Source of the DNA: Raja brachyura
Lineage: Eukaryota
NCBI GenBank assembly: GCA_963514005.1
Contig: OY740805.1
Coordinates: 18,104,001-18,168,000 of the forward strand
Length of the DNA stretch: 64,000 nt
Reading direction: 5' to 3'
The position numbers and the translations under genes were made by a program. Under the pieces are notes generated by a model. It was not told the origin of the DNA. It saw only the letters and a list, made by a program, of their open reading frames with translations, and ran no database searches. Shown one piece after another: positions 1-44,606 of the stretch. The stretch's first letter is position 1. Each line of letters starts with the position of its first letter.

Positions 1-1417
1 AACGAACAGTGATGTATATGTTGTAAGCTATCATCCCAAATTTCTGGACTAATTGTTTGACCTAATTCATTTTCCCATGATTGCCTATATAAATCCGTCT
101 TTGGAGCATCACTATCTAATACAATACTATAAATATATGGTATCAGTTTTTCTGTGTTCGGATGTTTATTCAAACATTCATCAAAAATTTCTATCTTTCT
201 AAATCTATATTCATTTGTAATTGACTTAACATAGTCTCTGATTTGTAAATATCTAATGTAATCCTTGGATTGAAGCCCATAAATTTGTTGCAATTCCTGA
301 AATGAGAGAAATGTATTTTTCCTATAGAGATCACCCATCTTTGTAATTCCATTGTTTTTCCATTGTAAAAAACCCTTATCCATCCATGAGGGTTTAAATG
401 CTACGTTGTTTACAATAGAAAGAGATAATGGTATATAATCCAATTTTAATGTTTTCTTTATTTGTTTCCAAGTGCGTATTCCACTATCTATTATAGGGTT
501 TTCTTTATAGTTTTTTTTGCTTAATTTGGTAATAGCAAATAGATTGACCCAATTTCAAAAGGTAAACAATCTTCTTTTTCCATTTTTAACCAGTCTGGTT
601 GTTTATCTAATTCTTCCAACCAAAAGTTCATATTCTTGATATTAACTGCCCAGAAATAAAACATAAAATTTGGTAATGCTAAGCCTCCATTTACTTTTGA
701 TTTACATAAATGTTTCTTGGTTATTCTGTGGTTCTTATAATCCCATATAAAATTAGTAAGTATAGAATCAACCTTTTTAGAAAAGGTTTTGGGAGATATA
801 TCGGGATTAATTGAAAAAGGTATAATAGTTGCGGGAGAAAAATCATTTTTATCGCATTAATTCTATCCATCATAGAAATGGGTAATGTTTTCCAATACAA
901 AATATTCTTATCTAATTTATTCAGTAAAGGCGGAAAATTAGGTTTAAATAAAGAAGTATATCTCTTTGTTACATAAATTCCAAGATATTTAAGTTTTTCT
1001 TTTACTATTTTAAAAGGGAATTGTTGTAAAATATGTGGGTTACTTTCCCTTATTTGGCATAATTTCGCTTTTGTTCCAATTAATTCTGTATCCTGATAAC
1101 GAACCATATTGAGTTATTAAATTTAGTAGATTTGGGATACTAACTTCAGGTTTAGTAATTTAAACTAATACATCATCTGCGTATAATGAGATTTTGTTTT
1201 CCGTATCTTTGGTTGTATACCCATATATTTCAGGATTGGACCTCACACTTTCTGCTAATGGTTCTATTACCAATGCAAATAATAACAGGGATAATGGACA
1301 TCCTTGTCTACAATCTCTGGATAAATTAAATTTAGTTGATAACACTTGATTTGTTGATATTCTAGCTGTTGGATTAGTATATAGAAATTTTATCCATGTA
1401 CTAAACCTCTCGCCCAT
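1..1417 (-). mobile_element. Decayed L1-clade LINE ORF2 (reverse transcriptase) fragment
   Basis: ORFs 1160-1417 and 721-1107 carry L1-type RT motifs RQGCPLSLLLFALVIEPLA, KISLYADDVL, LKYLGIYVT and RINAIKMIFLP. The frame is broken and the element runs off the window start. Confidence 0.85.
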
Positions 1418-2260: not shown

Positions 2261-2457
2261 ATATGTGCACACAAAAAACAAACAATTATGGTGCAACAAT
2301 AACAATAATAGTCTATGTAGTCAAGGGCTTGTTTGAGGTTGTAGTGTTTAATAGTAGAAAATCTAACTCTAATCTAATTTTGGGAAGTCAAATCAAGGCT
2401 GGTCAAATCTATTGCAGGATTCTAAATGGAGCTGTACCTTGGTGTATAATTACATAG

Positions 2458-2681
2458 GGTTACACAAAAAGCTGGAGAAACTCAGCGGGTGCAGCAGCAT
2501 CTAAGGAGCGAAGGAGATAGGCGACGTTTCGGGTCGAGACCCTTCTTCAGTCTGAAGAAGGGTCTCGACCCGAAACGTCGCCTATCTCCTTCGCTCCTTA
2601 GATGCTGCTGCACCCGCTGAGTTTCTCCAGCTTTTTGTGTAACCCTCGATTCTCCAGCATCTGCAGTTCCTTCTTTAACAC
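2458..2681 (+). mobile_element. Short Penelope-derived fold-back retroelement with hammerhead-like core
   Basis: Perfect 94-bp inverted arms at 2457-2550 and 2552-2645. 15-bp TSD TGTATAATTACATAG at 2443-2457 and 2682-2696. The sequence is homologous to the 3' terminal repeat that follows the GIY-YIG ORFs at 14196-14453 and 43050-43397. Confidence 0.85.
2552..2579 (+). ncRNA. Minimal hammerhead ribozyme-like motif (PLE type)
   Basis: CTGAAGA-A-GGGT(CTCG)ACCC-GAAAC-GTC: CUGANGA box, stem II, GAAA box, palindromic ACGT in place of stem III, and a GUC site. Identical copies lie at 9961-9988 (+), 2523-2550 (-) and 18095-18122 (-). Confidence 0.65.
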
Positions 2682-3241
2682 TGTATAATTACATAGTTCC
2701 CTGAAAATGATATCATAGTTTAATAGGGTAGTGAAGGGAATATATGTCTGAAGAATCGCCTCGACCCAAAACGTAACCCATTCCTTCTCTCCAGAAATAT
2801 TGCCGCTGAGTCTCTCTAGCTTTTTGTGTCTATCTTCGGTTTAAATTAGCATCTGCTGTTCATTCCTATGCAGAATATATGTTATGCCTTGTTTCCTCAG
2901 CCATGGTACTGAGGACTAGAGTTGTGGTGTCATATTCCAGTTGTACAGAATGTTGAACAGGCAACCATTAATCTGTCTAGGGCCTCAGCTGACTTGTTGC
3001 AAAAAAGACTCTAATCCAAGGTCTGAACTCTGAAAAGAAAATCAAGAAATTCAAGTTGCCACTCATCCAGGGACTGAATAACAAAACACATCTTAGTGTG
3101 CATAGGCAGACAAAAGTGCTGGAAAAACTCAGCGGGTGCAGCAGCATCTATGGACCGAAGGAAATGGGCAACGTTTCGGGCCAAAACCCTTCTTCAGACT
3201 CTTAGTTTTACTTATCTGGCTTGAGAACTCTTAACATTATC

Positions 3242-4744: not shown

Positions 4745-5056
4745 ATGGCATGGTGGCATAGTCGTAGGGTTACTGCTTTACAGCGCCAGAGACCCGGGTT
4801 CAATCCTGACTACAGGTTCTTTTCTATATGGAGTTTGTACGTTCTCCTCGTGACCTGCGTAGGTTTTCTACAAGATCTTCAGTTTCCTCCCACATTCCAA
4901 AGACGTACAGGTTTGTATGTTACTTGGCTTGGTATAAAAGGTCAAATTACCCCTAGTGTGTGTAGGGTCGCGTTAATATGTGGGGATGGCTGGTCGATGC
5001 AGACATGGTGGGCTGTCGGGTCTGTTTCCTCACTGTATCTCTAAACTAAACTAAAC
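4745..5056 (+). mobile_element. HE1-type tRNA-derived V-SINE (representative of roughly 25 or more copies in the window)
   Basis: Pol III A/B-box-like head (TGGCATAGTCG..GGTTCAATCC), V-domain (GGAGTTTGTACGTTCTCC..GTTTCCTCCCAC), CR1-like 3' end and (TAAAC)n tail. Confidence 0.9.
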
Positions 5057-5299
5057 ATAGACAACATCTGTCATCCAATTACACACTGGGCAATTTACAG
5101 CATTCAATTAACCAACCAACTCGCATGTCTTTCAGATATAGGAGGAACGGAGCATTTGGTGGAGATCCACGTGACATAGGGAGAACATGAAAATGATACA
5201 CGCAGTACCCGAGATCAGGATTGAATCCAAGTTGCTGGAGCAGAGGGGCACCAATTCTGCCATCTGTCTCAATGTACTGCCTTTTAAAAAGAAAAGTCA

Positions 5300-5616: not shown

Positions 5617-6494
5617 TAAGCTGTGTCTGCATTGTCCAAACACACACTCTCAGGGCAGAATTAGTTTAGTTTACAGTTTACAGTTTGAGATGCAGCGTGA
5701 AAACAGGCTTTTCGGCCTAGCAAGTTTGCGAAGACCAATGATCCCTTTACATTGGCACTATCCTTCGCACACTAGGGGCAATTTACAATTTGCAAGCCAA
5801 TTAACCTAATTAGAATTAACCTAAAGGAAACTGGAGCACCCGGAGAAAAACAATGCATTCACCTAACATACAAACTCTCGTATAGGCTTCACCCATAAGT
5901 CAGGATCAAACCCGGGTGTCTGATGCTATAAGGCAGCAACTCTACTGCTGTGCCACCCTGTATAGATATATGGAATGATACAGCAGCCTGAAAACTGTGA
6001 CAACCAGATTCAAGAACAGCCTCTTCTCAGCAATCAACAGGCTCTTCAATACTATGAAAAACTAACTTCAGCATCTATGATCATCTTTGAATGTACTATG
6101 AATTTTGTTTTTGCACTATTATGAACTTCTTCTTTCGTGTGTCGTGCACAGCCTAAAGTTGTCGGACAACTTGTTCTATTTGATCTTCAGTTTGTGCACA
6201 TTGAGTTGATTGTATTAGTCAAAACAGGGTGGACCACGTGAAGGTTGCAATGTTCTACCCACACTATTATGATAGTCCAGCATTACAATTTAATTTATTG
6301 CTTTATTTGTTGTCTAATATTCTGTGTTATTGCAGTTACGTGCAGGTGAAGCTGCAGCAAGCAGGAATTTTGTTGTTCTATTGTTGATACATATGACAAT
6401 GAAACTACTCTTACCTCACATTTGATTTTGGGCAAAGCTGACTCCATATTACCCCCACCATACACTCAGGAAAACTACAAAGAACAAGTACATG

Positions 6495-7786
6495 TTTAAG
6501 AAAGAACTGCAGATGCTGGAAAAATCGAAGGTAGACAAAAATGTTGGAGAAACTCAGTGGTGAGGCAGCATCTATGGAGTAAAGGAACAAGTGACGTTTT
6601 GGGTCAAGACCCTTCTTCAGACGTGGGGGTGGGGGGCGGGAAGAAGAAAGGAAGACGTGGAGACTGGCTGTGGCAGGGGAGGGGAAGGAGGGAGAAAGCA
6701 GGGACCAAAGATCCTATGGGCCACTCCTGCTAAATGCTGACGTGTAGTACGCAACGGAACTGAACGTGGGTGGGCCTTTTTTTCATCCATTTCCGTAACC
6801 GGATCCGACCTGACTCGCCGTGTAATCAACGTTGCAGGGGAAGAGTTTGTGTTAATAAATTAAATTTCTGAAAATGAGGAGAAGAATTTTACCAAATAAC
6901 TTTTATTTTTACGAGGTTGTTTCCGTAACCGGCTTCCATCTCCGCACTACTATCCTATGGGATTTTTGGTGTGGACACGGAAGCCGGTTACGGAAATGGG
7001 GCCTTAAATTACCCATGAATCTGCCCATGACCGTACTACATATCTTTCGTCGAGCGGACTATCTTGTCGCTATAGGATCTTTGGCAAGATCTACCTGAAA
7101 ATGGAGAAGTCAATGTTCATACCGCTGGGGTGTAAACTACCCAAGTGAAAAATGATATGCTGCTCCTCCATTTGGAGGTGTTGGGCGAAGTGATTGCCAA
7201 GCCTGCGCTTAGTCAAACCGATGTAGAGCAGTTGACACCTAGAGCAGCGGATGCAATAGATGAGGTTGGAGGAGGAGCAGGTGAACCTCTGCCTCACCTG
7301 AAAAGACTGCGTAGGTCTTTGGATGGAATCAAGGGGGGAGGTAAAGAGACAAGTGTAGCATTTCCTGCGGTGGCAACGAAAAGTACCAGGGGAGGAGAAG
7401 GTTAGGGAACGGGGCTTCCTCTCTTCGACTATTGATGAGGCTCTCACCAGGGTATCTTCTATATCCCATTGCTCCGCTCTCACTCCCCATCCCCCCACTC
7501 ATGACAAGTCCCCCTTGTCCTCACCTTTCACCCTAGCAGCCGTCACATACAACAGATAATCCTCCGACATTTTCGTCACCTCCAACGGGATCCCATCACT
7601 GGCCACATCTGCTCATCTTCTCCCCTTTTGGCTTTCTGCAGAGACCGCTCCCACTGCAACTACCTGGTCAATTTATCCCTTCCCAACCAAACCACCCCCT
7701 CCCCTGGTATTCTCCCTTGCAACCGCAGGAAATGCTGCACTTGTCGCTTTACCTCCACCCTTGACTCAATCCAAGCACCTAAGCAA
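6495..7786 (-). mobile_element. Penelope-like element 3' part with inverted upstream segment
   Basis: ORF 7091-7498 has the GIY-YIG motif NLIYCIRCSRCQLLYIG.TKRRL. The terminal repeat is at 6495-6620. 7406-7786 is upstream PLE coding sequence in the opposite orientation. Confidence 0.85.
6706..7083. mobile_element. Non-autonomous TIR element (CAAAGATCCTAT ends) nested in the Penelope 3' region
   Basis: TIR CAAAGATCCTAT / ATAGGATCTTTG. Homologous to 26698-26988. Confidence 0.75.
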
Positions 7787-9950: not shown

Positions 9951-10180
9951 GAGCTGGGGTCTGAAGAAGGGTCTCGACCCGAAACGTCGCCTATCTCCTT
10001 CGCTCCTTAGATGCTGCTGCACCCGCTGAGTTTCTCCAGCTTTTTGTGTAACCCTCGATTCTCCAGCATCTGCAGTTCCTTCTTTGAGACTACTTCTTAG
10101 TCTGCTCCTGTTATATTTTCTTGTGTTCTTGACGATTGCCCTCATGAATAAAGTTACAACTAGCAACCAACATTTCAGAC

Positions 10181-10700
10181 AGCGGGGCCTCACAGTGGCA
10201 CAGCAGTGGAGTTACTTCCTTGCAGTGCCTGTGACTCAGGTTTCATCCTGACTATGGGTGCTGTCTGTACCAACTTTGCATGTTCTCTCGGTGACTGCAT
10301 GGGTTTTCCCCTGGTGCTTCGGTTTCCTCCCAGTTCCAAAGACCTGTAGGTTAATTGGCATCTGTAAATTGTCCCACGTGTATAGGATAGAACTGTGTAG
10401 GCAGCACGGTGACGCAAAGGGTGGTACAGAAGTGCAGCGGTAGAGATACTACAGTGCCAGAGACCCAGGTTTGATCTTAACCATGGGTGCTGTATGTATA
10501 GATTTTTTATGTTCTCCCCATGACCTGTGTGGGTTTTCCCTGGGGATACCAACTTCCTCCCACACTCCAAAGATATGCAGGTTAATTGGCCCCAAGTGCG
10601 TGTAGGATAGTGTTAGTGTATGGGGATCACTGGTCAGCGCAGACTCAGTGGGACTAAGGGCCTGTTTCAATGCTGCACCCCTAAACCAAACTAATCTAAG
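10181..10700 (+). mobile_element. Two tandem HE1-type SINEs
   Basis: Two successive head plus V-domain units; the second ends in a TAAAC-like tail. Confidence 0.85.
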
Positions 10701-13272
10701 GAGCTGAGACCAACTGAACAGTGATCATTTCATTGAATGGTGGGACAAATTTGGTTCCTATTCTCAGGGGCTGATAGCCTACTCCTGTTCTATTTCCTCC
10801 TGTTCTTGATAGTTCCCCTCATGGAGGAAACTAGACCTCGGACGCCAGGTTTTCAAAGTGAGGAGAATTTGTTTTTATTTTTCTCCCAGATGATAATGAA
10901 TTGTGGGAATTTTCAACTGCAGAGTGTAGTTTCATTACATTACTGAGAAGGATGGATTTGTTTCTTTGAGAAGTTGTGGGTTACTGGTTACAGACTCTTC
11001 TGGACAAGAGTAGGTCAGTCATGACCTAATTGAGCTGCAGAACAGACTTTACACACGGCCAACAAATGCTTCATTTTTCTTGCGATCTCTACAATTACCC
11101 ACTACGATCATTACATTCTTACTTGTCTGTGATTGGACTCATGTATGATGTATTATGACTGGAGAGCATGCAAGACATAGTATTTCACTGTATTTTTGTA
11201 CACATTACAATAATAAACTAAACTAAACTTTAGGGAGAAGGGAGCAGAATAATGTGGCCCCAATCAGTGGATGATTAATATGGACCCAAACATTCCTTTG
11301 AACTAGTTCTGCCAGTGACTTGTGGGCCTAATCCTGCTTCCCGTTTCTTGTGTTCATGCATTTGATGTCTCTTGCTTACTGTGGTCACTGCTGTGAGTTA
11401 TAACTTCAGTAACATAAGTGAATTAGTTCAGCACTATCCGAGCAAAATTAACAGCCTCTTTAAAAGTGCAGACTTAAATCTGGTGTCGTGAGGGAGAAAC
11501 AAGGTCATCTTTGGGTTGATTGAAATGATTTTGGTTAAGAGCTGAAAATTAAAATGAATAGAAATTAACATTTTGACTTTAGACTTCAGAGGTACGTCAC
11601 GGAAATAGGCCCTTGGCCCACTGAGTCCTCGCTGACCCCCATACACTAGTACTATAGCACGGCAAGTGACAATTTACAATTTTACCAAAGCCAATTAACC
11701 TGAAATCCTGCACTTCTTTGAGATGTGGGAGGAAACTGGAGCACCCAGAGAAAAACATCGCCATCACAGGGCGAATGTACAAACACTGTACAGACAGCAC
11801 CGTTGGTCAGAATCGACCCGAGTCCCTGCTGCTATGGGCACCAACTCTACTCTTGCAACACTGAGGAGATCTTGAATTACAAAATCAATATTTTGGGCTC
11901 ATCACCAAGCATACCAGCACTTGGATTCTTTATATGGTACATTAATATGGAGTTTATTGCATTGAAACAGCCCCCACAAGCCTGCCCTGTCATTTAGTAC
12001 AATCCCTCAGTCATTCCTGATCTGATTTGGTTAGCACGCAAACAAAAACGTTTCACTGTATCTCAATACAAGTGACAATAATAAATCAATAGCAATGCTA
12101 TTGTCTAAGTTCTCCCCATATCTGGTAGATAGGTCCTTGATAACTTCACAGACACCGTTGCCGTCGATATCCACCACTATGTGCTGCACAGTTTCAATGT
12201 CCAAACTAGCTTCCAATAGAATGTCTTTACAGAATTCCATTTTGAGTTGAAAGATACAATATGGACACAGGCCCTTCAGCCCATCATGCAGACCATCGGT
12301 CACCCGTTCACAATAGTTCAATGTTATCCCACTTTTATGTCCAACCCCACACACACACTAGGGGAAATTTACAATTAACTGACAAACCCACACATCTGTG
12401 GAATGTGGGAGAAAACAAGAGCACCCGGGAAGAACCCAGCTGGTCACAGGAAGAACGAGCAAAATCTACGCTGAAGATAGGGAAAAATGCTGGAGAAACT
12501 CAGCAGGTGAGGCAGCATCTATGGAGTGAAGGAATAGGTGACTTTTCGGGTCGAGACCCTCCAAGTAGGGTCTGACCCGAAACGTTGCCTATTCCTTAGC
12601 TCCATAGATGCTGCCTCACCCACTGAGTTTCTCCAGCATTTTTGTCTACCTTCGATTTTTCCAGTATCTGCAGTTCTTTCTTAAAGAAAACCTACACAGA
12701 CAATGCGTGAGGTCAGGATCTAACGCTGGTCTCTGGTGTTGTGAGTGAGGCGGCAGCTCTACCAGCTGTGGACAGTGTTTGGTTTCCTCCTTTTTGTTCT
12801 GCATTGTAATGATTCAAGTTAGGACAGGTGATTGGATTTATGGGTCTCCTGAATCATAAAATAACATTAGGAGCAGTTAGCAGCACAAGAATGGAGCGGT
12901 ATCTGAAATGTAATTACAGTTCCAGGCAACTACGCCCTGCCATTCCATTCCATTTGCTATAGAGTGCGAAAAAAACAAAGTGCTGTAGTAACTCAGCAGG
13001 TCGGGCAACATCTCTGCAGGACATTGACAGGCGCTGTTTCAGATTGGGAACCTACTTCAGACTGACAATAGTCACCCATCCTTTTTCTCCAAAGATGCTG
13101 CTCGATTCCTTGCGTTACTCCAGTGCTTTGTGTCTATCGTCGCCAATCTATGCTCTCCGGAGTTGCGAGCTGACCTGCTGAGTTACACCAGCACTTTGTG
13201 TCTTTTTCTTTGTTGTAAATCGGCAACAACACCTCCTCGCGTCTCCATTGCAGTCAATTGTTTTGTGCTGGT

Positions 13273-13825: not shown

Positions 13826-14755
13826 AGGCCACTCACCAGGGTTTCCTCGATGCTCCGCTGTTGCTTCCCCCCCCCCCCTCCATTCCCCCCATTCGTATCA
13901 ATGACAAAGTCCCCCTTGTCCTCACCTTCCACCCCATTAGCCGTTGCACACAGCATATAATCCTCCATCATTTTTCCCACCTCCAACAGGATCCCAGTAC
14001 TGGCCACATCTTCCCATCTCCACCCCTTTCTGCTTTCCGTGGAGACCGTTCCCCTGAAATTCCCTGGTCAACTCGTCCTTTTCCACCCAAACTGCCCCCT
14101 CCCCAGGTACTTTCCCCAGCACCGGCAGGAAATGCAACACATGTCCCTTTCCCTCCCCCCTCGACTCCATCCAAGGACCCAAACAGTCTTTCCAGGTGAG
14201 GCAGAGGTTCACTTGCACCTCCTCCAACCTCATCTACTGTTTCCGCAGTTGCAGGTGGCAACCTCTCTCCATCAGCGAGGCCAAGCGCAGGCTCGGCAAT
14301 CATTTTGCTGAACTACTCTGCTCAGTCCATCTTAACCTACCTGATCTCCTGGTTGCTCAGCACTTCAATATCTCCTCCCATTCCCAATCTGACCTTTCTG
14401 TCCTGGGCCTCCTCCATTGTCAGAGTGAGGCGCAGTGCAAATTGGAGGAATAGCACCTCATATTTTGCTTGGGTAGTTTACAATCAAGCGGCATGAACAT
14501 TGACTTCTCCAGCTTTAAATAGCCCTTGCTTTCCCTCTCTATCCCCTCCCCTTTCCCAGTTCTCCCACCAGTCTTACTGTCGTTGCCTACATTCTATATT
14601 TGTCCCATCCACTCCCCTGACATCAGTCTGAAGAAGGGCCTCGACCCGATAGGTCGCCCATTCCTTCTCTCCAGAGATGCTGCCTGCCTGCTGAGTACTC
14701 CAGCATTTTGTGTCTACCTTCGAGTTAAACTAGCATCTGCAGTTCTTTCCTACAC
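13826..14755 (+). mobile_element. Penelope-like element 3' fragment
   Basis: VPLVLTFHP and decayed GIY-YIG NLIYCFRSCRWQPLSISEAKRRL, followed by the terminal repeat with CTGAAGAAGGG.. Confidence 0.85.
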
Positions 14756-16805: not shown

Positions 16806-18028
16806 CGAGTCAAAGTTCAGAACATGAGGGAGGGTCTTTTTATTTCTCCCCAGACTGGTGTGTCTGAAACCAAAATTCACAGTTTACAAATAAGGCTTCA
16901 GACATTCTTATGGCACCAAAACATGGTGACACTTGTGTATTGCCTAGGTTAGATCTGCTATATGATTTTACTGAGTTGTATACGGAACAAAACTTTTCAC
17001 TGTACCTAGGTGCCTGTGATAATAAAATACTATTGAATCATTGAATTCAGTGTAGTAAAGAGATTAAATTATTTCACCCAGAGGGGAATTAGTCTTTCAA
17101 ATTCTCTGTCCATGAAGGCTGTGGGCATTCAGTCAATCAGATGCTTGAGGCAGGGTTGGAAGATGCTTGGATACAAAAGGAAAAGGTTAGTTTGGAAAAA
17201 TGGTGGTCTGCTAGAGGATCATTATGATCTAATAGAATATCAGAGATTGGGGACAAAGGATGAATGGCACCACTTTACTTATGTTAGGTTTGTTCCCACT
17301 CCACAAGAGAGTCCAGAAGGAAAGAGAGTATAGAGTGTTCAATTGTCATATGTGCTGACTACAAATCAATGACATTCTCGTAGCAGCTGAGCAGAACTGT
17401 AAGACAATACAAATAAATAACATACTAAAAATTCAGCAAATTGATAGTCCCAATGCGTGCAAAAAACACCTTGAATGCTTAGTCTAACCAAAGACTGTCC
17501 ATAGGTCTACAGGGTCTGACTTGACACATCACCTATCCACTGTCACCAGCGATGCTGCCTGATCTGCTGAGTTACTCCAACACTTTGGCTTTATTTTGTT
17601 CATTATTCATAGTTGAGTGTACTGTAGTTCAGGGTTCAATATACGGGAAGATTTTAATGATCACATTCCAGCACACATCAAATGATCACATTCCAGCAGC
17701 ACACAAAAAATGACATTCTCCTTTGATGGTAATAATCTAAGTTGGTGAAAGGGGAAACAGACATAGATATAAAGAATAACATATTTAAAGCAGTTCCAAT
17801 GTAGGAAAATGCTTCAATGAGAATGCTTCAAGTAAGAATATTATTCTGTAACATTTTACTTCGAGCAGTATAATGACATTGCATGACAATTAGCAAAATA
17901 AACATTTAAGGTGCATCTTAAAGAAAAAAATAGAGGAAGGGATATATAGAGAGCAATTCTACGACTTAGGCCTACTCTTCAGATGAAGTACTTACATTTG
18001 TGAATAATCAGGATATTATACTGCCCGG

Positions 18029-18155
18029 GGGTTACACAAAAGGCTGGAGAAACTCAGCGGGTGCAGCAGCATCTAAGGAGTGAAGGAGATAGGCGACGTT
18101 TCGGGTCGAGACCCTTCTTCAGATTCTCCAGCATCTGCAGTTCCTTCTTTAACAC
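18029..18155 (+). mobile_element. Short Penelope-derived element with one arm missing
   Basis: 15-bp TSD TATTATACTGCCCGG at 18014-18028 and 18156-18170. Nearly identical to 2458-2681 but lacking the second arm. Confidence 0.85.
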
Positions 18156-21100
18156 TATTATACTGCCCGGTTCATCATGGGTACTGACCTCACCACCATT
18201 GAAGGGATCCACACGAGACGCTGTCTCAAAAAGGTAGCCAACATCATCACCCTGGCCACACTCTCATTACCTCCTACCATGGGGAAGAAAGTACATGTGC
18301 TTGAAAACCATAGCCACCAGGTTGAAGAATAGCTTCTTCCCAACAACTATCATGCAAATGAACACTACACAATGCTAACCTCAACTGTGAAATTCTATGG
18401 ACTGTCTTTGGTTGCACTAAGGACTTTCAGATTTTGTTTGCCCTAGTAGTGAGGTTAGTAATTGATTGATTTTGTTAGTTGTATTATGTATTTTCTATGT
18501 TTATTGTCTGTACAGACCTGTTATCATGCTCTGAGTAAAAATCTCATTGTTCCGTTTCTCGTTGTGTATATGTGTGTATATATAATTTGGTGCAGGGGGA
18601 AGATATATATATATATATATATGATAATTAAGCACTCAACTCTTGATTAAAACTGGAAGATGGTTTGCAATGCTGAGGAACAATGACGAGGGAAGAGCTG
18701 CGTAGGGAGGAACTGCAGATGCTGGTTTAAACCGAAGATAGACTCAAACAGCTGGAGTAACTCAGCGGGTCAGACAGCAACGCTGGAGAAAAGGAATAGG
18801 TGGCATTTCAGCTCGAGACCTTCTCTCCAGAGATGCTGCGTGTCCCACTGAGTTACTCCAGCATTTTGTGTCAATCTCTAAGTGCTGGAGTAACTCAGCT
18901 GGTCAGGCAGCATCTCCAGCAAACATGGATAGATGACGTTTAGGATCAACACCCTTCCACTGGGTGAAGAAGGGGTCTTGACCCGAAACATCTATCCATC
19001 ATCACATATCCATGTTCTCCAGGGATGCTGCCTTACCCACTAAGATGATCCAGCACTTTACGCATCTATCTTTGTGAACCAACATTTGTAGTTCCTTGTT
19101 TCTAGTGTAAATTGACTTTCATTTGTAGGTAAGTAATATGATCTGGAGAGATATGATGGGAATTTGCAGAGAATAAGAATGGGTTGGTCGAGAGCAAGAG
19201 TTTAATTGTCATCTGTACTGGCAATTGGACAATGAAATTCTCATGCACATATTGAATATAAGATAATCAATGACACAATAAATTAATATTAGTTATACTA
19301 GGTAACCAAACCATAACAGTGGAAAAACAAAACTTCCTTACTGCAAGCAAAATAAAGTCCATCACAGATCAGAGTTGTTGAGGTAAGGTTGTGGTTAGTG
19401 TTGTGCAGTGTTTAAAAGCCTGTTGCTCGTCAGAAAAAAACTGCTCTTAAACCTGGAGCTAACAGTTCTCAGGCTCTCTAACCTCAAAGGTAGTTCATTG
19501 TTTCAATGGTATTTTATTTGTGGCATGTACCAAGGTACAGTGACATTTATTTTTGTATACAGTTTAATACAGATATCACTATATATATATAAGCCCTTAG
19601 ATATATCTTAGATAAGCATCTCAGATGCAGTACGTGTCGCCAGTTATTTGTGCCATTTTCACATCCCAGTTGTTGTAAGTGAGGGTTCTTGGCCTGACCA
19701 TGAGCCCCACTGTCCTGGTGTTGTTCCAGGGTCGGCCTGGCCAAGCGAAGCTGTGGTGTCCTCTACTGCTGCAGGGAGTAACTGGTCCATGCGCCCGGCC
19801 TCTTGGAGCGGCGCCTGGAACAGCCAAGCCCCAGGCTGCTGTAGGGCCTCCAGCGCCCACTCCACTGTTGAGGCAGTGCATTCCCTCATGCAGCCAGTCT
19901 GTCTATCAGCCATCCATCTGACTCCTTCCACTCTGGGCCGACGAGTTGAGCCTTCCAGATGGTTCCTCCATCCTTGGTCCACAGCGACCAAGAACTCGGT
20001 CCATGATGGATGGGCCCGATCTTCCGGGCGAATTCCCGGTCCAGGGTGGCCGGCCCTGAGAGTATGGCCAGGGTGGTGTGGGTCTCTGATGACATTAGCT
20101 GTCTTTCTGAGGCAGCACCTCCTGTAGATCCATTAAATGATGGAATGGAATGGTATGGAATTTGTGCTTCATGGTCAGTGGACTCTGGCGGCTGATGAGT
20201 CTTTTTGTGTGTCTCTGTGACTATATGTGTGGAGAATGCTTTGAAAGTAAGAGTAGGTGAAGGGGCATTCCAAATGATGGGATGCACATGTCATTGTAAA
20301 TGGGGCCCTCAAAGTATTGATCTTTAAAATGCTAAATCCTTCTATCCGGGGATGCTGCCTGTTCCACTGCGTTACTCCAGCATTTTGTCTCGATCTTTGG
20401 TGTAAACCAGCATCTGCAATGCCTTCCTACACAGGCAAAAGAAGGTTTCCAACAATGGATTCTGTTTGTATGGAGTTTATATGTTCTTCCTGTGACCGCT
20501 CGGGTTTCCTCTGGGTGCTCCGGTTTCCTCCCGCGTTCCAACAACGTGTGGGTTTGTAGGTTTATTGGCCTCTGTAAATTGCCCTGAGTGTGTAGGATGT
20601 GAAACAGGGAAAACATAGAACTAGTGTATGGGTGATTGATGGTCAGTGCAGACTCAGTGGGCAGAAAGGCCTGTTTCCATGCTGCATCTGTTAAAAAAGA
20701 TTGGTGAGCATGATACCCGAATTCAAACGTCACGGAAAAACCAACACATTTTAGTTTGTTCAGACAAGAACACCCAATAATGTTTTTATTCAAAGAGAAC
20801 AACAAAGTACTAAAGGTTTGCAGGTACAAAGTCCAACAGTGAGCATTGCTTAATCTAATGTTATACTTTGAACATTGTAGCAGTAGGGCATTCAGCACAG
20901 GGAGGCTGTCCCATTGAGGGGGGACGAGGACAAAGGGGGAACTGTGGGGGTGGGAGTGCCACCAAGAATGAAGGGGGAACTGGTGGGGATGTGGTCTGCT
21001 GCCATGTGTGACAACAGGCAGTGGATAGGACTGTTCGGTACTTTTGTAACTTTGTCTGTACCAACACATGGCGACACTTTTGTACTGCCTAGGTTCAGTT

Positions 21101-22041
21101 TGGTTTATTGTCACGTGTACCGAGGTACAGTGAAAAGCTTTTTGTTGCATGCTAACCAGTCAGTAGAAATACAATACATGATTACAATCAATGCATTTGC
21201 AGTGTAGAGACGCATGATAAGGGAATAATGTTTAGTGCAAAGTGAAGCCTGCAAAGTCCAGTCTAGGATAGACCGAGGTTGTATGGAAAACAAAGCATTT
21301 CACTATACCCAGGTACCCTGGGTACATGTCACAATGGAGTATCATTCATTCTTTCCTTCATTCATCGATCCTATTCCTCCCACCATATGTTCCATAAAAC
21401 ACAGTCACTCATGGCTGTCAATGCTCCTTTGATTTGTTTTTTCCATTAACCTGTGTTGAGCTGGTTAATGGGTTTTGTGAAATGCAGCACAGTGGTGCAA
21501 TGGTAGAGAGCTGCTGCCTCATCGTGCCAGAGACCTAGGTTCAATCCTGACCTCGGGTCTGTCTGTGTGGAGTTGCACGTTTTCGCCGTGACCGCTGTGG
21601 TTCCTCTGGGTGCTCTGGTTTTATGCCACACCGCAAAGGCATGCAAGTTTGTAGGTTAATTTGCCTATGTAAATTGCCCCTAGTGTAATGAGTGGATGAG
21701 AATGTGGAATAACTAGAGTGAATGGGAGATCAATGGTCAGCATGGACTCTGTGGGCTGAAGGGCCCTGAAGGAGACCCGGGTTCGATCCCGATGTCTGTA
21801 TGGAGTTCAAACGTTCTACCCTTGACCTGCGTGGGTTTTCTCTGAGATCTTTGGTTTCCTGCCACATTCCAAAGACGTGCAGGTTTGTAGGTTAATTGGC
21901 TTGGTAAATGTAAAAAATGTCCCAGGTGCGCGTTAATGTGCAGGGATCACTGGTCAGCACGGACCTGGTGGGCCAAAGGGCCTGTTTCCGCGCTGTATCT
22001 CGAAACATAGCCATGTTGAACATTGTTGAAAAGGATAGTAA

Positions 22042-25540: not shown

Positions 25541-26697
25541 ATAATAATGCTGCCCACTGGAACAGTTTCCATGTTTTTCAATCAGCAATATTCTCACTAG
25601 AATGGGCCATAAAAAAGTACTCCCTGTGGAAAACGTTCAGTAACTTGGGGAAAAAAGATTAAAAATAATTGTTAAATTACATTGTAAAGGACAATGTCAA
25701 CAGAAAACAAATGTGATCCATGAACTAGTTGATCGTTGCCTTACCTCAGCCACCATCCACTGAATGCTGCCACTGAGTGGTATATTTGTGGGATACTTTG
25801 TAGGATTACGTGGAATAAAAACATACATCAATCATAATTGATTTAAATGGTACACAGGATGCCAGGTTTTATTTACACTGTATTTGTAAACACAGAACAA
25901 TGATGCACAAGGCAGGATGTACAGGAAGGAACTGCTGAAGCTGGTTAAAACAGAACATAGACACAAAAAGCTGGAGCAACACAGCGGGACAGGCAGCATC
26001 TCTGTTTCTGGGTGATGTTTCTGGTCGAGACCCTTTTTCAGACCCTATTAATTCCACGTCACCATGTGGTCTATACCCCTCTATTTCCTGCCTGTTCATG
26101 TGTGTGAATGCTTATCCACATATATTGTGCTGTAGCATCTGCATCCACCTCTCCTGAGAGTGTGTTCCAGGCATCTACCACTTTCTGTGTCCCAAAGCAG
26201 CCTCTTTTGCATCGGCATAGACTGGACGACCATTTAAAAAGCACTTGCATTCTGTCTGTCAATGCCCGCTGGATCTCCCAGCTCCTAACCTTTCAACTCC
26301 CCTTCCCAGTACCAGACCAACCATCCTGTCTTTAGCTTCTGCCATTGCCAGAGTGAGGACACATGAAATCTGGAGGAACAGCACTCCATGTTCTATTTGG
26401 ATAGCTTACAGTCCAATGATATCAACATTGTTAAAGAAGGAACTGCAGATGCTGGAGAATCGAGGGTTTTACACAAAAAGCTGGAGAAACTCAGCGGGTG
26501 CAGCAGCATCTAAGGAGCGAAGGAGATAGGCAACGTTTCGGGTCGAGACCCTTCTTCACATTGAATTGTTCAATTTGAGGCAATACCCACCCCTTCCTCT
26601 AATCCGACAACCCCCCCTCCCCCCCCCCCCCCAACACCCGCTCTTTCCTGTCCACCCTGGTGTGCACCTATTCACCTATTTCTCCCACTCTCCCAAT

Positions 26698-29900: not shown

Positions 29901-31529
29901 TCAAGCCAGTTAACCTACATTCCTGCACGTCTTTGGAGTGCGGGAGGAAATCGAAGATCTCGACAAAAATCCACGCAGGTCACTGGGAGAACGTACTATC
30001 TCCGTAGAGACATCATCCATAGTCAGGATTGAAACCGGGTCTCTGGCACTGCAAACACTAGGCAGCAACTCTACCGCTGTGCCTCTGTGCCGCCCTTATT
30101 GGTAACTTTGTGTGATCTTATTTTGTTTGGATGCAAATTCTATCGGAACGCTTTCTCAAAAAGATACATAATGATGTAGAAACAACGAACTGCAGATGCT
30201 GGTTTGTACCAAAGTGTGTCACAAAATGCTGGAGTAACTCAACGGGTCAGACAGCATCTCTGTAGAAAAAGGATGGGTGATGCTGGGTGAAGCTTCAGGT
30301 TGGGACCCTTCTTCAGACTGATGCGTTGGGTTTGGGAACCTTCTTCAGACTAAACCTGCATGAGACTGAAGTAGGGTCCTGACACGAAGTGCCATCCAGC
30401 CTTTTTCTCCAGAGATGCTGTGGTCTTGCTGAGTTACTTTAGCACTTAGTGTCTAAGGTTGATAATGAGTTGTTCAATCTTGATTTATTTGTGATGTTAA
30501 TTTCTGCATGTTCACAGGGCAGACTGTGAGAGTTAACAGTTGAAAAACTAGTCGAACAGGAAATGTGTGGTATTTGAGGAAGTGTGAATGTGGGGCCTCT
30601 CCAGTGAGATAATAGTGGAACTCCCTGACAAAAGGGGATGTGGTGAACTATCAGAAAGTCACCAGGTGGTTCTATCAAAACAGAAGTTAAATGTTACATT
30701 AATATTTATAGAGTCTGCTCTTGATGTACTGGCATGATGCAAACCGATTTGGCCAGCCTACTGTATATTGCAGCTCAAGATGATATAGAGATATAGCATG
30801 GGAGCAGGCTCTTCAGCCCACCAAGTCCATGCTGAACAGCGATCCCCGTACAGTAGAAATATCTAATAGACTTGCAACAATTTATAATCTTTACCAAAGC
30901 CTATTAAACTACAAACCCGTCTTTGGAGTGTGGGAGGAAACTTAAGCACCCAGGGAAAACCCACAGGTAGAATGTAAAAACTCCATACAGACAGCACCCA
31001 TGGTCAGGATTGAACCTGGCCATCTCTCGTGCTGTAAGGCAGTAACTCTACCGTTGTTCCACCGTCACCCTTTTGTTTGGAATCGTGACAGAAGTCTCGT
31101 CGTGGCGATCCCCGGAACCGACGGCACAATGTACTCTGTGACGTGTCGGGCGACCAATTCTGTCAACATGTTGGATGACGACAGGAGCCAACAGCGAGCT
31201 ACATGTCGTCTGACACACAAGTGAATGAACCCTTGTTAGACTAATCAAATGCAGGTTACGACATAAATATGATGTGATGCAACTAATTGAGAGTGCAGCA
31301 TAGAGAGTGCAGCACAGAAACAAGCCCTTTGACCCACTAAGTCCATGCTAACCTTTTTGGGACCTGATCTCTTTTTATCTTCCTGATATTTCCAATACCC
31401 ACCCCTAGATTTTACTATTTAATGACACACGGTGTAATAAATGGTGGCCTGGGAACCAAATAACTGCCGTGACTCACCTTTGTGGGTGGAATATCTGAAT
31501 ATCATATCATTTCCAAATGTTGATCAGTA

Positions 31530-31820
31530 AGGGCGGCACAGTGGGGCTGTGATAGAGTTGCTGCTTTAAAGTGCCAGAGCCCCAGGTCCGATCCTGACTA
31601 TGGGTGCTGTCTGTAGGGAGTTTGTACGTTCTCCCCATGACCAGTGTGGGTTTTCTCGAAGATCTTCAGTTTCCTCCCGCACTCCAAAGACGTACAGGTT
31701 TGTAGGTTAATTGGCTTGATATAAACGTAAATTGTCCTTCGTGTGTAGGATAGTGTTAATGTGCGCACTCGTGCCGAAGGGCCTGTTTCCACACTGTATG
31801 TCTAAGCTAAACTAAAATAA
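31530..31820 (+). mobile_element. HE1-type SINE
   Basis: GGGCGGCACAGTGG head, V-domain and TAAAC tail. Confidence 0.9.
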
Positions 31821-32169
31821 TCTAAGTTAGCTTGACATTTGGAATCATATAAGCATAGAAACAGGCCCTTCAGCCCACCTTATCTATGCCGGCCAAGATG
31901 CCCCATCTAATCTTGACCCACCTACCTATATTTTAGCTTAATTGAATTGATTATTAATGTCACGTGAAAATGTTTTGTGTGTGCTATCCAGTCAGTGAAA
32001 AGTCTACATTACTATGAAGCCGTTCACAATATATAGATACAGGATAAAGGGTATCATGTTTAGTGCAAATTAAGTCCAATTGGTGTTTTGCCGGTTTCCC
32101 TCCAAACCTTTCCTATCCATAGAAATGTCTATTGCTTGACAATAATTGTATTATTTTATTTGTGTCTAG

Positions 32170-32430
32170 GGCCTCACACACTGATCTATTACTACACCCT
32201 GAACCACGGGAATACTCATCTACCAGAATATAGTGTGGTGGGTGTTCTGGACGGTTGTGAGATACAGTATCATGACAAAAACATGGCCATTACAGTTCCA
32301 AGACAGAAATGGATGGCGGCTGCATTTGACAGGAGTTACTGGGTAAGAAATACGGTTTTCACAACTGGTTTCCATGGAATCATCAAAGGGGAAGTCGCCG
32401 AATGGATGCGGAGGCATAGCAAAACAACAG
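32170..32430 (+). CDS. MHC class I heavy chain exon 2 (alpha1 domain)
   Basis: 261-nt open exon bounded by ctag| and |gttagt, phase 1/1. GPHTLIYYYT..PEYSVVGVLDG..VPRQKWM..DRSYWVRNT matches class I alpha1 (H3, Y7, G26, D29, P47-R48, W51, Y59-W60, T64). Confidence 0.93.
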
Positions 32431-38233: not shown

Positions 38234-38707
38234 GAATGTTTTCCTCATTTCGGTCCTAAAGGAATTCCCCCTTATCCTTAGACTGTGACCCCTTGTTCTG
38301 GACTCCCCCAACATCGGGAACAATCTTCCAGCATCTAGCTTGTCCAACCCCTTAAGACTTGGGCTTGTCCAACCCCAATGCTTTATATATGTTAATGCCA
38401 CCGTTTAGCCCCTCCCACATTACCCAATTAACCAACAGACCTGTACATAATGGTCATGATAACAGGCACGTACGCAATGGGAGATGTTAATTAGTGGAAC
38501 AACACTAGAGCTAAGACAGGGACATTTCTCAGACTTTCGGGAGCCAGTGGTTTGCATATTCTTCAGCCTTCTGAAAATCAGCCACCTCAATCAGACGGGT
38601 GCGAGGAATATCAAAGTAGCGATCAGCAGATCAGCATCAGCAGGATAATGTGTATTTCTCAGGATCACAACTTTCTGAAACCTGCAGCCACATAGTCAGC
38701 AACTTTG

Positions 38708-38897
38708 TGTTAAAGAAGGAACTGCAGATGCTGGAGAATCGAGGGTTACACAAAAAGCTGGAGAAACTCAGCGGGTGCAGCAGCATCTAAGTAGCGAAGG
38801 AGATAGGCGACGTTTCGGGTCGAAAACCCGAAACGTCGCCTATCTCCTTCGCTCCTTAGATGCTGCTGCACCCGCTGAGTTTCTCCAGCTTTTTGTG
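38708..38897 (-). mobile_element. Short Penelope-derived fold-back element
   Basis: 15-bp TSD TAGTCAGCAACTTTG at 38693-38707 and 38898-38912. Inverted arms are centred near 38823. Confidence 0.85.
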
Positions 38898-40240
38898 TAG
38901 TCAGCAACTTTGGTCAGCAGAGATTTTAAGTTTCAACCCAGTTCGCCTGACCTCCATTTTCCCTTCACAGAACCATTTTACAGTGTTGATTCAAGATTTA
39001 CATTCACATTCTCACCGTGATCTGTGTGGGTTTTCCCCGCTATCTTCAGTTTCCACACACGCTCCAAAGGCGTACAGGTTTGTAGGTTAATTGGCTCGGT
39101 ATAAATGTAAATAGTCCCCAGTGCGTGTAGGATATTGTTAATGTGTTGGGATCACTGGTTGGTGCAGACTCCGTGGGCTGAAGGGCCTGTTTCTGCACTG
39201 TATCTCTAAACTAAACTAAATCAAACTTGCACTAAGGAGGTTCCCAAAGAGTTCAGCCATCCAATAACTCAGCCTAATAAGGTGGAACGAGGAACTGCTT
39301 GGTCTACTGAAAATGCATAGAGGTTTGGAGAGAGTTGCCATAATCACTGATGGAAACATTTCAGCGCACAATACTAATGACAACAGGGTAGCGTGGTGGC
39401 ACAGCGGTGGAGCTGCTGCTTCACAGCTCCAGAGACCTGGGTTCGATCCTGACTCCGGGTGCTGTCAGTACGGAGTTTGTACATTTTCGCTGTGAATGTG
39501 AGGGTTTTCTCTGGGTGCTGCAGTTTCCTCCAACACTCCAAAGACACACATGTTTGTAGGTTAATTGGCTTCGGTAAAAATTGTAGATTGTACCTCGTAT
39601 GTAGGATTGTGCTGATGTACAGAGATTGCTGGTCAATGTGGGTACAGTGGGCTGAAGGGCCTGTTTTCATGCTTTATCTCTAACCTATACGAAATAATTG
39701 TCCTTGTAACAAATATGAGCTTATTTCACACCTGGGGCATAGATCCAGGGTTTCTTTCCTTTCATCTTAATTCCAGGTTCTCTGATAGGAAGAGCCATCC
39801 ATAAGATAGGATCAGGTTGGGATTCTGCAGTGGTGTTTCTGGCACAGGCATAATTCTTCCAACTTTTGTAAACATATTGCTGCCTCAAAGTGCCATAGAC
39901 CAAGGTACAAGCCTGCTGTCTGTATGGAGGTTGTACTTTTTCCCCGTGACCGCATGAGGTTTCTCAGAGATCTTGGTTTCCTCCCACACTTGAAAGACAT
40001 ACAGGTTTGTAGGCTAATTGGCTTTATATAAATATAAATTGTCCCTAGTGTGTGTGGGATAATGTTAATGTGCGGGTATCACTGGTCAGTGCGGACTGGC
40101 TGGGCCGAAGTGCCTGTTTCCATGCTTCCATTGTCCACGTCATGCTCCTCGTCCTTCCATTTTCCTCTTTGGGAAGCGGGAGCAAAGTAGAAGGGGTAAC
40201 ACAGCTCCCTCTCACTATGTGGAGATGCTACCAGACCCTT

Positions 40241-40775: not shown

Positions 40776-41702
40776 TATGGCTTGTGTGGGGAAAATGAAC
40801 CCCACGCTCCCGTCTCCCCTCTTCTCTCTCTCCCCCTTCTCTCTCCCCCCTCTGTCTTCCCCCTCTCTCTCACCTGGTCTTGGATCAAAAACTTGTACTG
40901 AAGTCCCCACATTCTGTCCACACCTTGTTAATCTGTTGCTGCCACGTTTTTATTTCACTATTGGCCATGACCCGAGTATACCCGGGGGTGGCAACTGAAC
41001 AGATTAATCAGGAACAGTTTCCTAGGAAACGGCAAGCAGATGGACCTAAAGATCGTAGCCTGTGTATTATCCAGAGATGCTGCCCGACCGGCTGAGTTAC
41101 CCCAACACTTTGTGTCTTTCTTAATTTTAGGAAGGAACTGCGGATGCTGATTGAAACCGAAGATTAACACAAAAAGCTGGAGTCACTCAGTGGGTCAGGC
41201 AGCAAGTCTGGAGAAAGGGAATAGGTGATGTTTCTGGTTGAGACCTCCTTCACACCTGCCACCAAAATGTCACATTCCTTTTCACCTGAGATGCTGAGTG
41301 ACTCCAGCTTCTGGTGTCTATCTTGTGTCCTTCTTAAATTGTGTTGACTTCATGCATGTGGCAATCAGGTGGTTTATATTATTGGCAGAAAATCCCATTG
41401 AAAGTAGGAAGTATTCTGCATTATAAGCACAGGTGGAATGGATATGCACATGTTACAATGTCCTGGTACATTGTCCTGTTACCGTGACTCCCATTACTTA
41501 TGTATGAGTTATTTAATCACCAGTTCCAGTGTGAAGAAGGATGAGAATGGCAAAGGAATGGAAGCTTGCATAACCAAAAAGGTGATAAACTTAACTAGAA
41601 AGAAACAAAAAGAAAGTGCATGTAAGGATCAGGAGGATGGAATCAGGCAGGAGCTATGAGGAATGTAAAGAAAGGAGGGAATAACTCGAGTGGGTGAGTA
41701 GA

Positions 41703-42592: not shown

Positions 42593-42829
42593 TGAAGACA
42601 TACATTCAATACATACAAAACCGACACAAAGAAGGAAGGGACAGGCAGAGTTTTGGCGAGGCATCCATTGCACCAAAACACGAGGGAGAAGGTGGGATTG
42701 CTTAAAGATGTAGCGGCGAATATGTGCTTGGTGTTTTTGGACGGAGGCGAGGTACGAAACAAATACTTTGCATTTGGTTTCACCAAGAAAGACATGGAGA
42801 AAAGTAAGGACTTTTAATAGTAAGTACAG

Positions 42830-43622
42830 CATGTAATCCTCCAACATTTTCACCACCTGCAACAGGATCTGACTACTGGCCACATCTTCCCATCTCCACC
42901 ACTTTCTGCTTTCCGCAGAGATCGTTCCCTCCGAAACTCCCTGGTCAACTCGTCCCTTCGCACCCGAACGACCCACTCCCCCGATACTTTCTCCTGCATC
43001 CGCAGGAAATGCAACACCCGTTCCTTTACCTCCCCCCTCGACTACATCCATGAACCCAAAGTCTTTCCAGGTGAGGCAGAGGTTCACTTGCTCCTCCCCC
43101 AACCTCATCTACTGTATCTGCTGTTTCAGTTGTCAACTTCTCTACATCAGCGAGACCAAGCGCAGGCTCGGCGAACGTTTTGCTGAACACCTCCACTCAG
43201 TCCGTCTTATCCTACCTGATCTCCCAGTGGCTCAGCACTTGAACTCCCCCTCCCATTCCCAATCTGACCTTTCTGTCCTGGGCCTCCTCGATTGTCAGAG
43301 TGAGGCCCAGCACAAATTGGAGGAACAGCACCTCGTATTTCGCTTGGGCAGTCTACACTTCAGCGTTATGAACATTGACTTCTATAACTTTCGATAGCCC
43401 TCCATTTATCTCTCCATCCCCTCCCCCTTTGCAATTCTCCCACCAGTCTTACTGTCACCGCCTACATTCTATCTTTGTCCCTCCCCTGACATCAGTCTGA
43501 AGAAGGGTCTCGACCCAAAATAACGCCCATTCCTTCTCTCCAGAGAAGCTGCCTGACCTGCTGAGTTACTCCAGCATTTAGTGTCTACCTTCGATTTTAA
43601 CATCTGCAGTTCTTTCTTACAC
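42830..43622 (+). mobile_element. Penelope-like element 3' fragment (GIY-YIG endonuclease plus terminal repeat)
   Basis: ORF 43050-43397: NLIYCICCFSCQLLYISETKRRLGERFAEHL..EEQHLVFRLGSL. Confidence 0.9.
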
Positions 43623-43744
43623 ATGGAGAATCAATGTGGAGAATGTTAACATGCAGGGGCACTTTGAAGTTAAGTAAGAAGGAGATGTGGGGTCACTTCA
43701 AGAGAAATGTGGGTAAATCCCCAGGATAGAGGGGTGTAGTGGAT

Positions 43745-44190: not shown

Positions 44191-44330
44191 AATATTCAGG
44201 GTGTAGTTCAGTGACAAGTAGAGTTCTGCAGGGGTCTGTGCTGTGAACCTTGCTACTTGTGACATATATAAATGACTTGGACCCTGGTGTCATAACAATT
44301 AATCAAATAATGATTTTGTCTTTCTTTCAG

Positions 44331-44606
44331 ATTATCACTATATTCAAGGACAGTTTGGTTGTGAGGTGAACGATCACAGTCCCAATGTAGGGATATTGAA
44401 GTTGGCTTATGATGGAAGATATGCATTTAGTTTTGATAAGAACACACTAAAGTGGACAGTGCATGATCCAGTAGCTGAGCCCTTCAAAGAGAAATGGGAC
44501 AAGAATGTAAAAATGAACCGTTATTTCAAGAGCTTGTTAGAAAATGACTGTGTGGAACGATGGCATACATACTATGCAATTGGAAAGACATACCTGACCA
44601 GGGAAG
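44331..44606 (+). CDS. MHC class I heavy chain exon 3 (alpha2 domain)
   Basis: 276-nt open exon bounded by tttctttcag| and |gtgagt, phase 1/1. DYHYIQGQFGCE..LAYDG..FDKNTLKW..KEKWD..LENDCVE..TYY with the C101-C164 pair. Confidence 0.95.

Follow-up and report, generated by a model that had tools for sequence, protein, structure and literature searches.

The five near-identical insertions that recur across the window (the whole 64-kb stretch of skate DNA analysed, which is repeat-rich animal DNA with 44% GC) raise the question of whether they constitute a new, self-propagating kind of element or products of a known retrotransposon, and of what the 15-bp target-site duplications (TSDs) flanking some of them record. 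The sequence-only reading had described five near-identical copies of one young subfamily. This was confirmed by a BLAST search of the window with positions 2552-2681, which recovered five copies displaying 96.9-100% identity to the query, while the next-best relatives reached at most 88%. Positions within the repeat are given relative to a 132-nt monomer reference (2550..2681), with window position 2550 as position 1. The copies and their parts are as follows.

2443..2457, plus strand: left 15-bp TSD of copy 1; its last 2 nt double as the outer end of the inverted arm (microhomology)
2456..2550, minus strand: inverted arm of copy 1, which covers monomer positions 3-97 and reaches to the inner 3' end class (the tail start)
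2550..2681, plus strand: forward monomer of copy 1, 132 nt
2647..2681, plus strand: tail of copy 1 as in Penelope-like elements (PLEs), 35 nt, unpaired and at one end only (compare PMC8557442, PMC3846280, PMC11167929)
2682..2696, plus strand: right 15-bp TSD of copy 1
9959..10085, plus strand: copy 2, a single-orientation monomer (1-127); TSD not found
18014..18170, plus strand: copy 3, with TSDs at 18014-18028 and 18156-18170; positions ~2-96 inverted, then 99-132 forward
26425..26563, minus strand: copy 4, a single-orientation monomer (4-131) with a 5-6-bp TSD, inside an old PLE endonuclease remnant
38693..38912, minus strand: copy 5, head-to-head, with TSDs at 38693-38707 and 38898-38912 and its junction within hammerhead stem II

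Divergence from the monomer is zero in both arms of copy 1 and over the 127 nt of copy 2, and comprises two substitutions in the inverted arm of copy 3, one substitution and a 2-nt insertion in copy 4 (element boundaries 26429-26558), and one substitution plus junction changes in copy 5. With 0-3 differences per copy, the subfamily is thus young. The inserts, of ~126-224 nt, contain terminal-repeat (pLTR) sequence only, as had been proposed, and upstream body sequence is absent from all five. Other parts of the initial description required revision. Of the two diagnostic motifs attributed to every copy, copy 3 has no exact match to either and copy 4 lacks the second. The supposed perfect palindrome with 94-bp arms at copy 1 has arms of 95 nt each (2456-2550 and 2552-2646), 100% identical, which extend 2 nt into the left TSD; the reported 1-nt spacer stands, and because a 35-nt unpaired tail follows the arms the insert is not a symmetric palindrome. 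Copy 3 is not palindromic either, since positions ~1-96 inverted are joined to ~99-132 forward in a classical twin-priming layout, with a 2-nt junction microhomology and no duplicated segment. The inverted arm of copy 5 ends at ~90-92, and its two arms differ from each other once. In copy 5 the terminal C is common to the TSD, and copy 2 extends no further than monomer position 127 and so lacks the AACAC end.

Judged from their sequence relationships, the young copies are the ~132-nt pLTR (as defined in PMC8969392) of a Neptune-like Penelope element. Older pLTR relatives, 80-83% identical, lie directly downstream of remnants of a GIY-YIG-region ORF at 6493, 14626 and 43495, and the homologues of these remnants combine RT and GIY-YIG domains, in agreement with the PLE origin first suggested. 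Three decayed bodies were identified.

42824..43623, plus strand: decayed, 5'-truncated PLE body with Cys-linker, GIY-YIG region and pyrimidine-rich 3' UTR; a related pLTR, with ATCA before it, forms its end
13906..14755, plus strand: second decayed PLE body, likewise terminated by a related pLTR
6493..7390, minus strand: third decayed PLE body, whose pLTR is 83% identical to the young monomer

A search with one PLE remnant against 1.84 billion protein representatives revealed 951 matches at E<=0.001. Among the 150 matches listed were four long homologues of 816-891 aa, which contain GIY-YIG (4/4) and RT (3/4) domains, with one match per domain above the curated cut-off. A CxxxxCxxC-type Cys linker is present in the window remnants and in the two homologue sequences inspected (P0028 and P0056). 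A Zn-finger-like Cys linker is described as common to Neptune and Nematis (PMC8557442), so this linker points to one of these two clades; the Neptune-like label for the homologues is a reading of such sequence features. The closest proteins to the PLE endonuclease remnant are from Leucoraja erinacea (2 matches among 128 candidates). A Pfam search of seven window ORFs left the PLE remnants unmatched, the sole match being a CR1-type RT at 59664-61460, and the 64-kb window comprises neither an ORF-bearing parent of the young subfamily nor a core PLE RT.

The 5' part of the monomer reads as a minimal hammerhead, a predicted ribozyme.

2552..2579, plus strand: minimal type I hammerhead core, read by eye against the features described in PMC4209133

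The core spans monomer positions 3-30 and displays CUGAAGA, an extra A, stem II, GAAA, a self-complementary ACGU replacing stem III and a GUC cleavage triplet, with a helix I of only ~2 bp. No Rfam model matched the whole window at gathering score. For 2430-2710 at E<=10, ten sub-gathering matches, mostly to generic hairpin (miRNA) models and none to a hammerhead, were dismissed as effects of the palindrome. Compensatory changes were observed at none of six pairs in 17 aligned copies, which thus lend no independent support to a conserved RNA fold, and the monomer folds modestly better than shuffled sequences (z -1.86). The exact 28-nt repeat motif was found at no locus in bacterial or archaeal genomes, as expected for an animal repeat.

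The exact 15-bp direct repeats previously noted at 2443/2682, 18014/18156 and 38693/38898 were all reproduced, the chance of an exact 15-mer being ~1e-9 at a fixed register and ~1e-7 per locus with a slack of +/-4 on each side. The proposed constancy of this length applies within the head-to-head class and fails for the subfamily, as the TSDs of copies 1 to 5 comprise 15, none, 15, 5-6 and 15 bp, respectively. The short TSD of copy 4 (26425/26558) is supported by the uninterrupted endonuclease-end homologues at 43340 (plus), 7070 (minus) and 14480 (plus), which carry the motif once. In copy 5 the nick spacing is 14 or 15, given the terminal C common to the TSD. No clear nick-site consensus was observed among four sites inspected, and a flank search for a target deletion of ~60 bp in a CR1 3' end by copy 2 gave no usable empty-site homologue.

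With boundaries set by hand, TSD length was compared between 11 head-to-head loci (counting the nested pair at 18.7-19.1 kb as one) and 13 of 29 single loci, chosen for definable ends, two of which later looked body-attached; 552 mismatched flank pairs served as the null. A 15-bp signal is present in six of the 11 head-to-head loci, with 15, 15, 15, 14, 11 and 11 matches of 15 (p<=0.009), and absent from the other five, which are old or nested (5, 8, 6, 7 and 8 matches of 15). Besides the three young copies, the signal is carried by the following loci.

41110..41337, minus strand: head-to-head copy of an older subfamily with a 14/15 TSD (41110-41124, 41323-41337), its target being the end of another pLTR remnant
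30160..30468, minus strand: old head-to-head copy with a degenerate 11/15 TSD in the expected register
12460..12700, plus strand: old head-to-head copy with a degenerate 11/15 TSD in the expected register

The 14/15 TSD at 41110/41323, where the target is itself a pLTR end, reveals that the 15-bp spacing is not peculiar to the young subfamily, while the two 11/15 cases, with boundaries set by hand, fix the diagonal rather than the exact length. Single copies yielded an exact 10-bp TSD (2746), an exact 10-bp or 12/15 one (27177), 6 bp (26430), 9/11 (23093) and little else. As the single-orientation copy at 27177 reaches 12/15 at 15 bp (p=0.005), the split between classes is not absolute. In this small sample of exact TSDs (three exact and one near-exact), TSD length tracks insertion class, 15 bp going with head-to-head copies. 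A 15/21 repeat at 27522 and a 13/22 repeat at 12.9k were set aside as TSDs, being element-derived or low-complexity. Several pLTR copies are nested in or abut other pLTRs (18700-19099, 28994-29328, 12969-13236, 41068-41328) and copy 4 lies in a PLE remnant, suggesting insertion into the element's own repeat; two older pLTR copies, 2746-2871 (the one with the exact 10-bp TSD) and 3104-3198, lie within 520 nt of copy 1.

A profile built from 13 copies produced 53 matches in the window, which group into 41 loci; automatic pairing classed 12 as head-to-head. The 3' ends form two classes ~35 nt apart, with 20 at positions 85-105, 27 at position 122 or beyond (a class limited above by profile length), four between and two shorter. 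The arms of the three young inverted copies divide between these classes, every inverted arm terminating in the inner one and every forward arm in the outer one, and the layout of an inverted pLTR plus a 30-40-bp tail is present in miniature, with a 35-nt tail in copy 1. At the other end, 38 of the 53 matches reach position 10 or lower, the remaining 15 starting further in. The sequence 5' of these 38 is, by our own classification, pyrimidine-rich and 3'-UTR-like (8), an inverted arm (15), unrelated flank (14) or another pLTR (1). The 5' ends therefore do not form a gradual series: the majority stop immediately ahead of the hammerhead, and the common stop lies ~30 nt upstream of the cleavage triplet. 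The two 3' end classes and the sharp 5' stop favour one of the two origins initially envisaged, a stereotyped product of short or abortive PLE retrotransposition.

Older subfamilies occur both solo and body-attached. In several body-attached older copies ATCA or GTCA precedes position 1, generating TCAGTCT, which we take to fit the initiator consensus; the upstream ATCA was seen only in older subfamilies, and the body-attached relative at 6493 lacks it. In five of seven solos whose 5' end is intact, the base immediately preceding the element is a G (p ~0.03, uncorrected and post hoc), a weak hint of a capped RNA end. Interpretation of the 5' stop as a 3' splice site (pyrimidine tract plus CAG before position 2) was disfavoured, the position-1 G being kept in the seven solos counted and the position-0 A in three of seven.

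The junctions differ from copy to copy. The short palindrome TCAG-N-CTGA forms the centre of copy 1 (N=T) and of an old fold-back at 34190 (N=A), and two identical cDNA ends annealing at this word would leave one central mismatch, which explains the 1-nt spacer of copy 1. In copy 5 the join falls within the self-complementary stem II. In copy 3 a 2-nt match links position ~2 to ~99; having no duplicated segment, this copy was not made by DNA fold-back. Three young fold-backs with three different junctions indicate that each inversion was made anew and that the fold-back is not a replicating unit, contrary to the self-propagating fold-back once entertained. Many older junctions are located elsewhere than at self-complementary words. 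At 30182-30455 a head-to-head copy carries at its junction an additional short duplicate of sequence from the repeat's 5' end, which suggests a template jump.

The positions and the class association are observed directly; from them we infer an enzymology in which the copies are, probably, miniature and independently made insertions of an endonuclease-bearing Neptune-like PLE, generated through a double nick, two-site priming and a microhomology join. An RNA-bound PLE protein would nick both target strands ~15 nt apart, leaving 15-nt 3' overhangs. Reverse transcription would then start internally at monomer ~89-97 or ~127-132, two sites ~35 nt apart, as found in vitro for another PLE. The anatomy of the head-to-head copies suggests that in these both nicked ends acted as primers, a start at the outer site producing the forward arm with the tail and a start at the inner site the inverted arm without it; because both DNA ends would serve directly as primers, the full 15-bp stagger would be kept as TSD. 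Synthesis of the cDNAs usually terminates at monomer 0-5, immediately 5' of the hammerhead, and the likeliest cause would be run-off from an RNA that starts at this stop. Transcription is reported to start inside the pLTR in Penelope and Chlamys (PMC8557442; PMC2377424), and run-off from the transcript's first pLTR is for this reason the preferred cause. Finally, the cDNA ends would anneal via short words, namely TCAG-N-CTGA in copy 1, stem II in copy 5 and the 2-nt match in copy 3. Where only one end is primed, the other would be trimmed and joined by microhomology, leaving a TSD of 5-10 bp or none. The inverted arm of copy 3 has no counterpart in the forward arm of that copy and so must have been primed separately on RNA.

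The components of this scheme are not equally secure. A PLE two-primer origin of the copies is highly probable, we favour with less assurance the view that 15 bp is the true nick spacing, and for the 5' stop as transcript start the chances fall just short of even. A stricter version, in which a fixed 15-nt staggered double nick is followed by priming of both ends at two fixed RNA positions within the first pLTR of a capped transcript, most insertions being strong-stop-like run-off cDNAs of ~97 or 132 nt, is tentative and rather unlikely; solo copies retaining the start site may then amplify as a PLE-driven SINE. If true, this fixed-nick, two-site rule would be a complete one for the tandem, inverted and tail structures of PLEs. 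The old head-to-head copy at 34093-34293, both arms of which end at the inner site (tail-less) and which has no 15-bp TSD, may be a true exception to the two-primer model.

Other origins were weighed against the two-primer scheme. The pLTR could spread as a SINE-like, non-autonomous and PLE-dependent solo, ~132-nt solos being transcribed from an internal promoter so that the monomer itself amplifies while the integration chemistry is unchanged. Such an origin, which we consider unlikely, would suit the lack of body sequence in 5/5 young copies and the 5' stop shared by most older ones; furthermore, non-autonomous PLEs exist (PMC8557442) and a pLTR suffices in cis for mobilisation in trans (PMC3846280). 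However, priming on the first pLTR of a normal transcript would give the same products, the older subfamilies are both solo and body-attached, and the young monomer forms no tandem arrays. Self-priming, in which a single cDNA (or antisense RNA) would fold back on a short internal palindrome and serve as its own template, has been proposed for the inverted junctions of rotifer Penelope and is the published reading of the palindromes found there (PMC3846280). The junctions of copies 1, 5 and 34190 do fall on short self-complementary words, but self-priming cannot produce copy 3, whose inverted arm has no template in the forward arm, needs a second rule for the fold-back to stop at the tail start, and is at odds with the many older junctions located elsewhere; it is quite improbable. 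The retrozyme-like unit that had been suggested, a metazoan element processed by its hammerhead into circular RNA and retro-inserted as tandem repeats, is hardly tenable. A predicted type I hammerhead core is present, the unit size is near the lower end of the retrozyme range and PLEs are proposed mobilisers of retrozymes (PMC7229834), yet none of the five young copies forms a head-to-tail array or begins at the hammerhead cleavage site, 38 of the 53 matches start upstream of the cleavage triplet (position 30), the hammerhead is minimal rather than canonical with loop-loop contacts and Rfam is negative, and the repeat is collinear with PLE ends.

Rather than the GIY-YIG nuclease, general target-primed geometry, host repair or an L1-type enzyme working in trans might set the 15-bp length itself. 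The window contains an L1-like ORF2 fragment at 721-1113, the TSDs of L1 peak at 14-16 bp, and short TSDs are enriched in its 5'-truncated, not its inverted, copies (PMC2912911). On the other side, there are no poly(A) tails, no TT/AAAA target at the four sites inspected, and the two-site ends are specific to PLEs, all of which speaks against L1 in trans; general target-primed geometry may still play a part, and the explanation as a whole is unlikely. The earlier proposal that the 15-bp TSD reports the nick stagger of the GIY-YIG endonuclease is accordingly kept as plausible only, given that L1, with an unrelated endonuclease, also displays 14-16 bp. That the copies are assembly artefacts (chimeric fold-back reads) or a MITE-like fold-back moving as DNA can be given very little credence. 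Perfect palindromes belong to a known class of assembly artefact, but the asymmetric tail, the exact TSDs, the diverged old equivalents, the three different junctions and the arm-to-arm difference in copy 5 all speak against such an origin. From a MITE-like fold-back one would expect the same junction and the same two ends in every copy, whereas here the inverted-arm ends spread over ~90-97, and TSD length is not uniform across the five young copies.

Copy 5 is located in an intron between exons 32169-32429 and 44327-44605 of an MHC class I-like gene on the plus strand, whose further exons comprise 45559-45834 and 47940-48083; this intron, of ~11.9 kb, holds several other repeats, and intronic hairpin copies could be a source of double-stranded RNA. 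The exons are 85-90% identical to a Rhinoraja protein over three alpha domains, with matches to one exon in Rhinoraja, Leucoraja, Mobula and Hemitrygon (5 among 18 candidates). Together with the Leucoraja erinacea matches of the PLE endonuclease region, these point to a skate-like host. Other repeats are abundant in the window. A 5'-truncated LINE at 59664-61563 (plus), which we take to be CR1-type, retains a 599-aa uninterrupted frame with an RT match (E=1e-32) and is probably young. The 3' end of the same family recurs at 37036-37632, broken by two inversions into three segments (minus 37036-37175, plus 37173-37482, minus 37478-37598) that share 91-95% identity with the 61-kb copy and are followed by a TGAAT run, an arrangement that reads as a doubly inverted LINE insertion. 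GC-rich minisatellites occupy 37859-38233, with a 26-bp unit (x8.3) directly followed by a 35-bp unit (x4.5). A second abundant dispersed family of ~300 nt, SINE-like by size and corresponding to repeat families D7-D9 and D12-D18, is found at 4766-5062, 10208-10702, 21507-22022, 31554-31823, 39409-39701, 49914-50209 and other positions. The ORF2-like fragment at 721-1113 (minus) has no Pfam match and presumably resembles an L1/Tx1-type ORF2.

Taken together, the copies are real and young: miniature PLE insertions of canonical type, which reveal no new kind of element. The architecture of an inverted pLTR plus tail, the tail itself, solo and opposite-strand hammerhead pairs and short insertions have already been described. 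In the open literature we found no class-linked 15-bp PLE TSD, no sharp 5' stop, no run-off explanation and no study of this skate family. The formation of tandem and inverted PLE insertions is described as still open (PMC8557442, PMC11167929), and the class-linked 15-bp TSD is a modest, testable clue to how PLEs cut and copy. Young insertions of this size preserve, within ~200 bp, the traces of the two nicks, the two priming sites and the joining of the cDNAs; with five young copies and 53 repeat matches per 64 kb, the genome should offer enough of them for nick spacing, priming microhomology and the 5' end of the RNA to be measured with no need for biochemical assays.

Among known systems, the metazoan non-LTR retrozymes (PMC7229834) share with the skate copies a short non-coding unit and a type I hammerhead, a predicted one in the skate; retrozymes carry canonical hammerheads head-to-tail and are expressed as circles, whereas the skate copies are solo or head-to-head and minimal. 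The minimal hammerheads of metazoan PLEs (PMC4209133) have the core read in the skate repeat, with an extra base after A9, a G10.1-C11.1 pair and a palindromic 15.2-16.2. They are mostly single motifs, with pairs on opposite strands 100-700 bp apart in Schistosoma, and the stem II (4-5 bp) and helix I (~2 bp) of the skate motif are shorter than those of Schistosoma (PMC4209133). The Chlamys PLE of Chlamydomonas resembles the skate family in its very short insertions, with a median of 128 bp for de novo events, and in its non-autonomous partners, and differs in belonging to an N-terminal-endonuclease clade, in the lack of a canonical hammerhead and in its microsatellite target (PMC9977147). L1 twin priming (PMC2912911) generates the same 5' inversions with microhomologies, in the layout of copy 3, and likewise ~15-bp TSDs in inverted and short TSDs in truncated copies. 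In contrast with L1, which uses another endonuclease, the skate copies have no poly(A), their breakpoints are fixed at an internal RNA site and the arms of copies 1 and 5 overlap by 75-95 nt. The split in human L1 thus supports the notion that twin-primed ends keep the stagger, and also cautions against tying 15 bp to GIY-YIG alone.

The closest parallels are with other PLEs. For Anolis carolinensis Poseidon, in vitro work revealed that both strands are cut and extended and that two internal RT starts bound the tail; its hammerhead is followed ~65-100 nt on by the two apparent RT start sites (PMC11167929). Poseidon belongs to a different clade, for which the Cys-linker is not reported in the sources cited; the main text of that study gives no nick stagger, TSD length or explanation of inversions. 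EN+ PLEs in general (Penelope/Poseidon, Neptune and Nematis; PMC3846280, PMC8557442) display the same head-to-head pLTRs with an inverted copy ~35 nt shorter, the same 30-40-bp tail at one end, a palindromic word at the junction, either a TSD or a microhomology junction, and solo pLTRs. Rotifer Pen2a has an inverted pLTR shorter by 37 bp and an optional 31-bp tail, and its insertions have TSDs of 8-10 bp or TSD-less microhomology junctions (PMC3846280). The skate inserts differ from these EN+ elements in being restricted to the pLTR (126-224 nt) and in the 15-bp TSDs of their head-to-head copies, compared with 8-10 bp in the rotifer.
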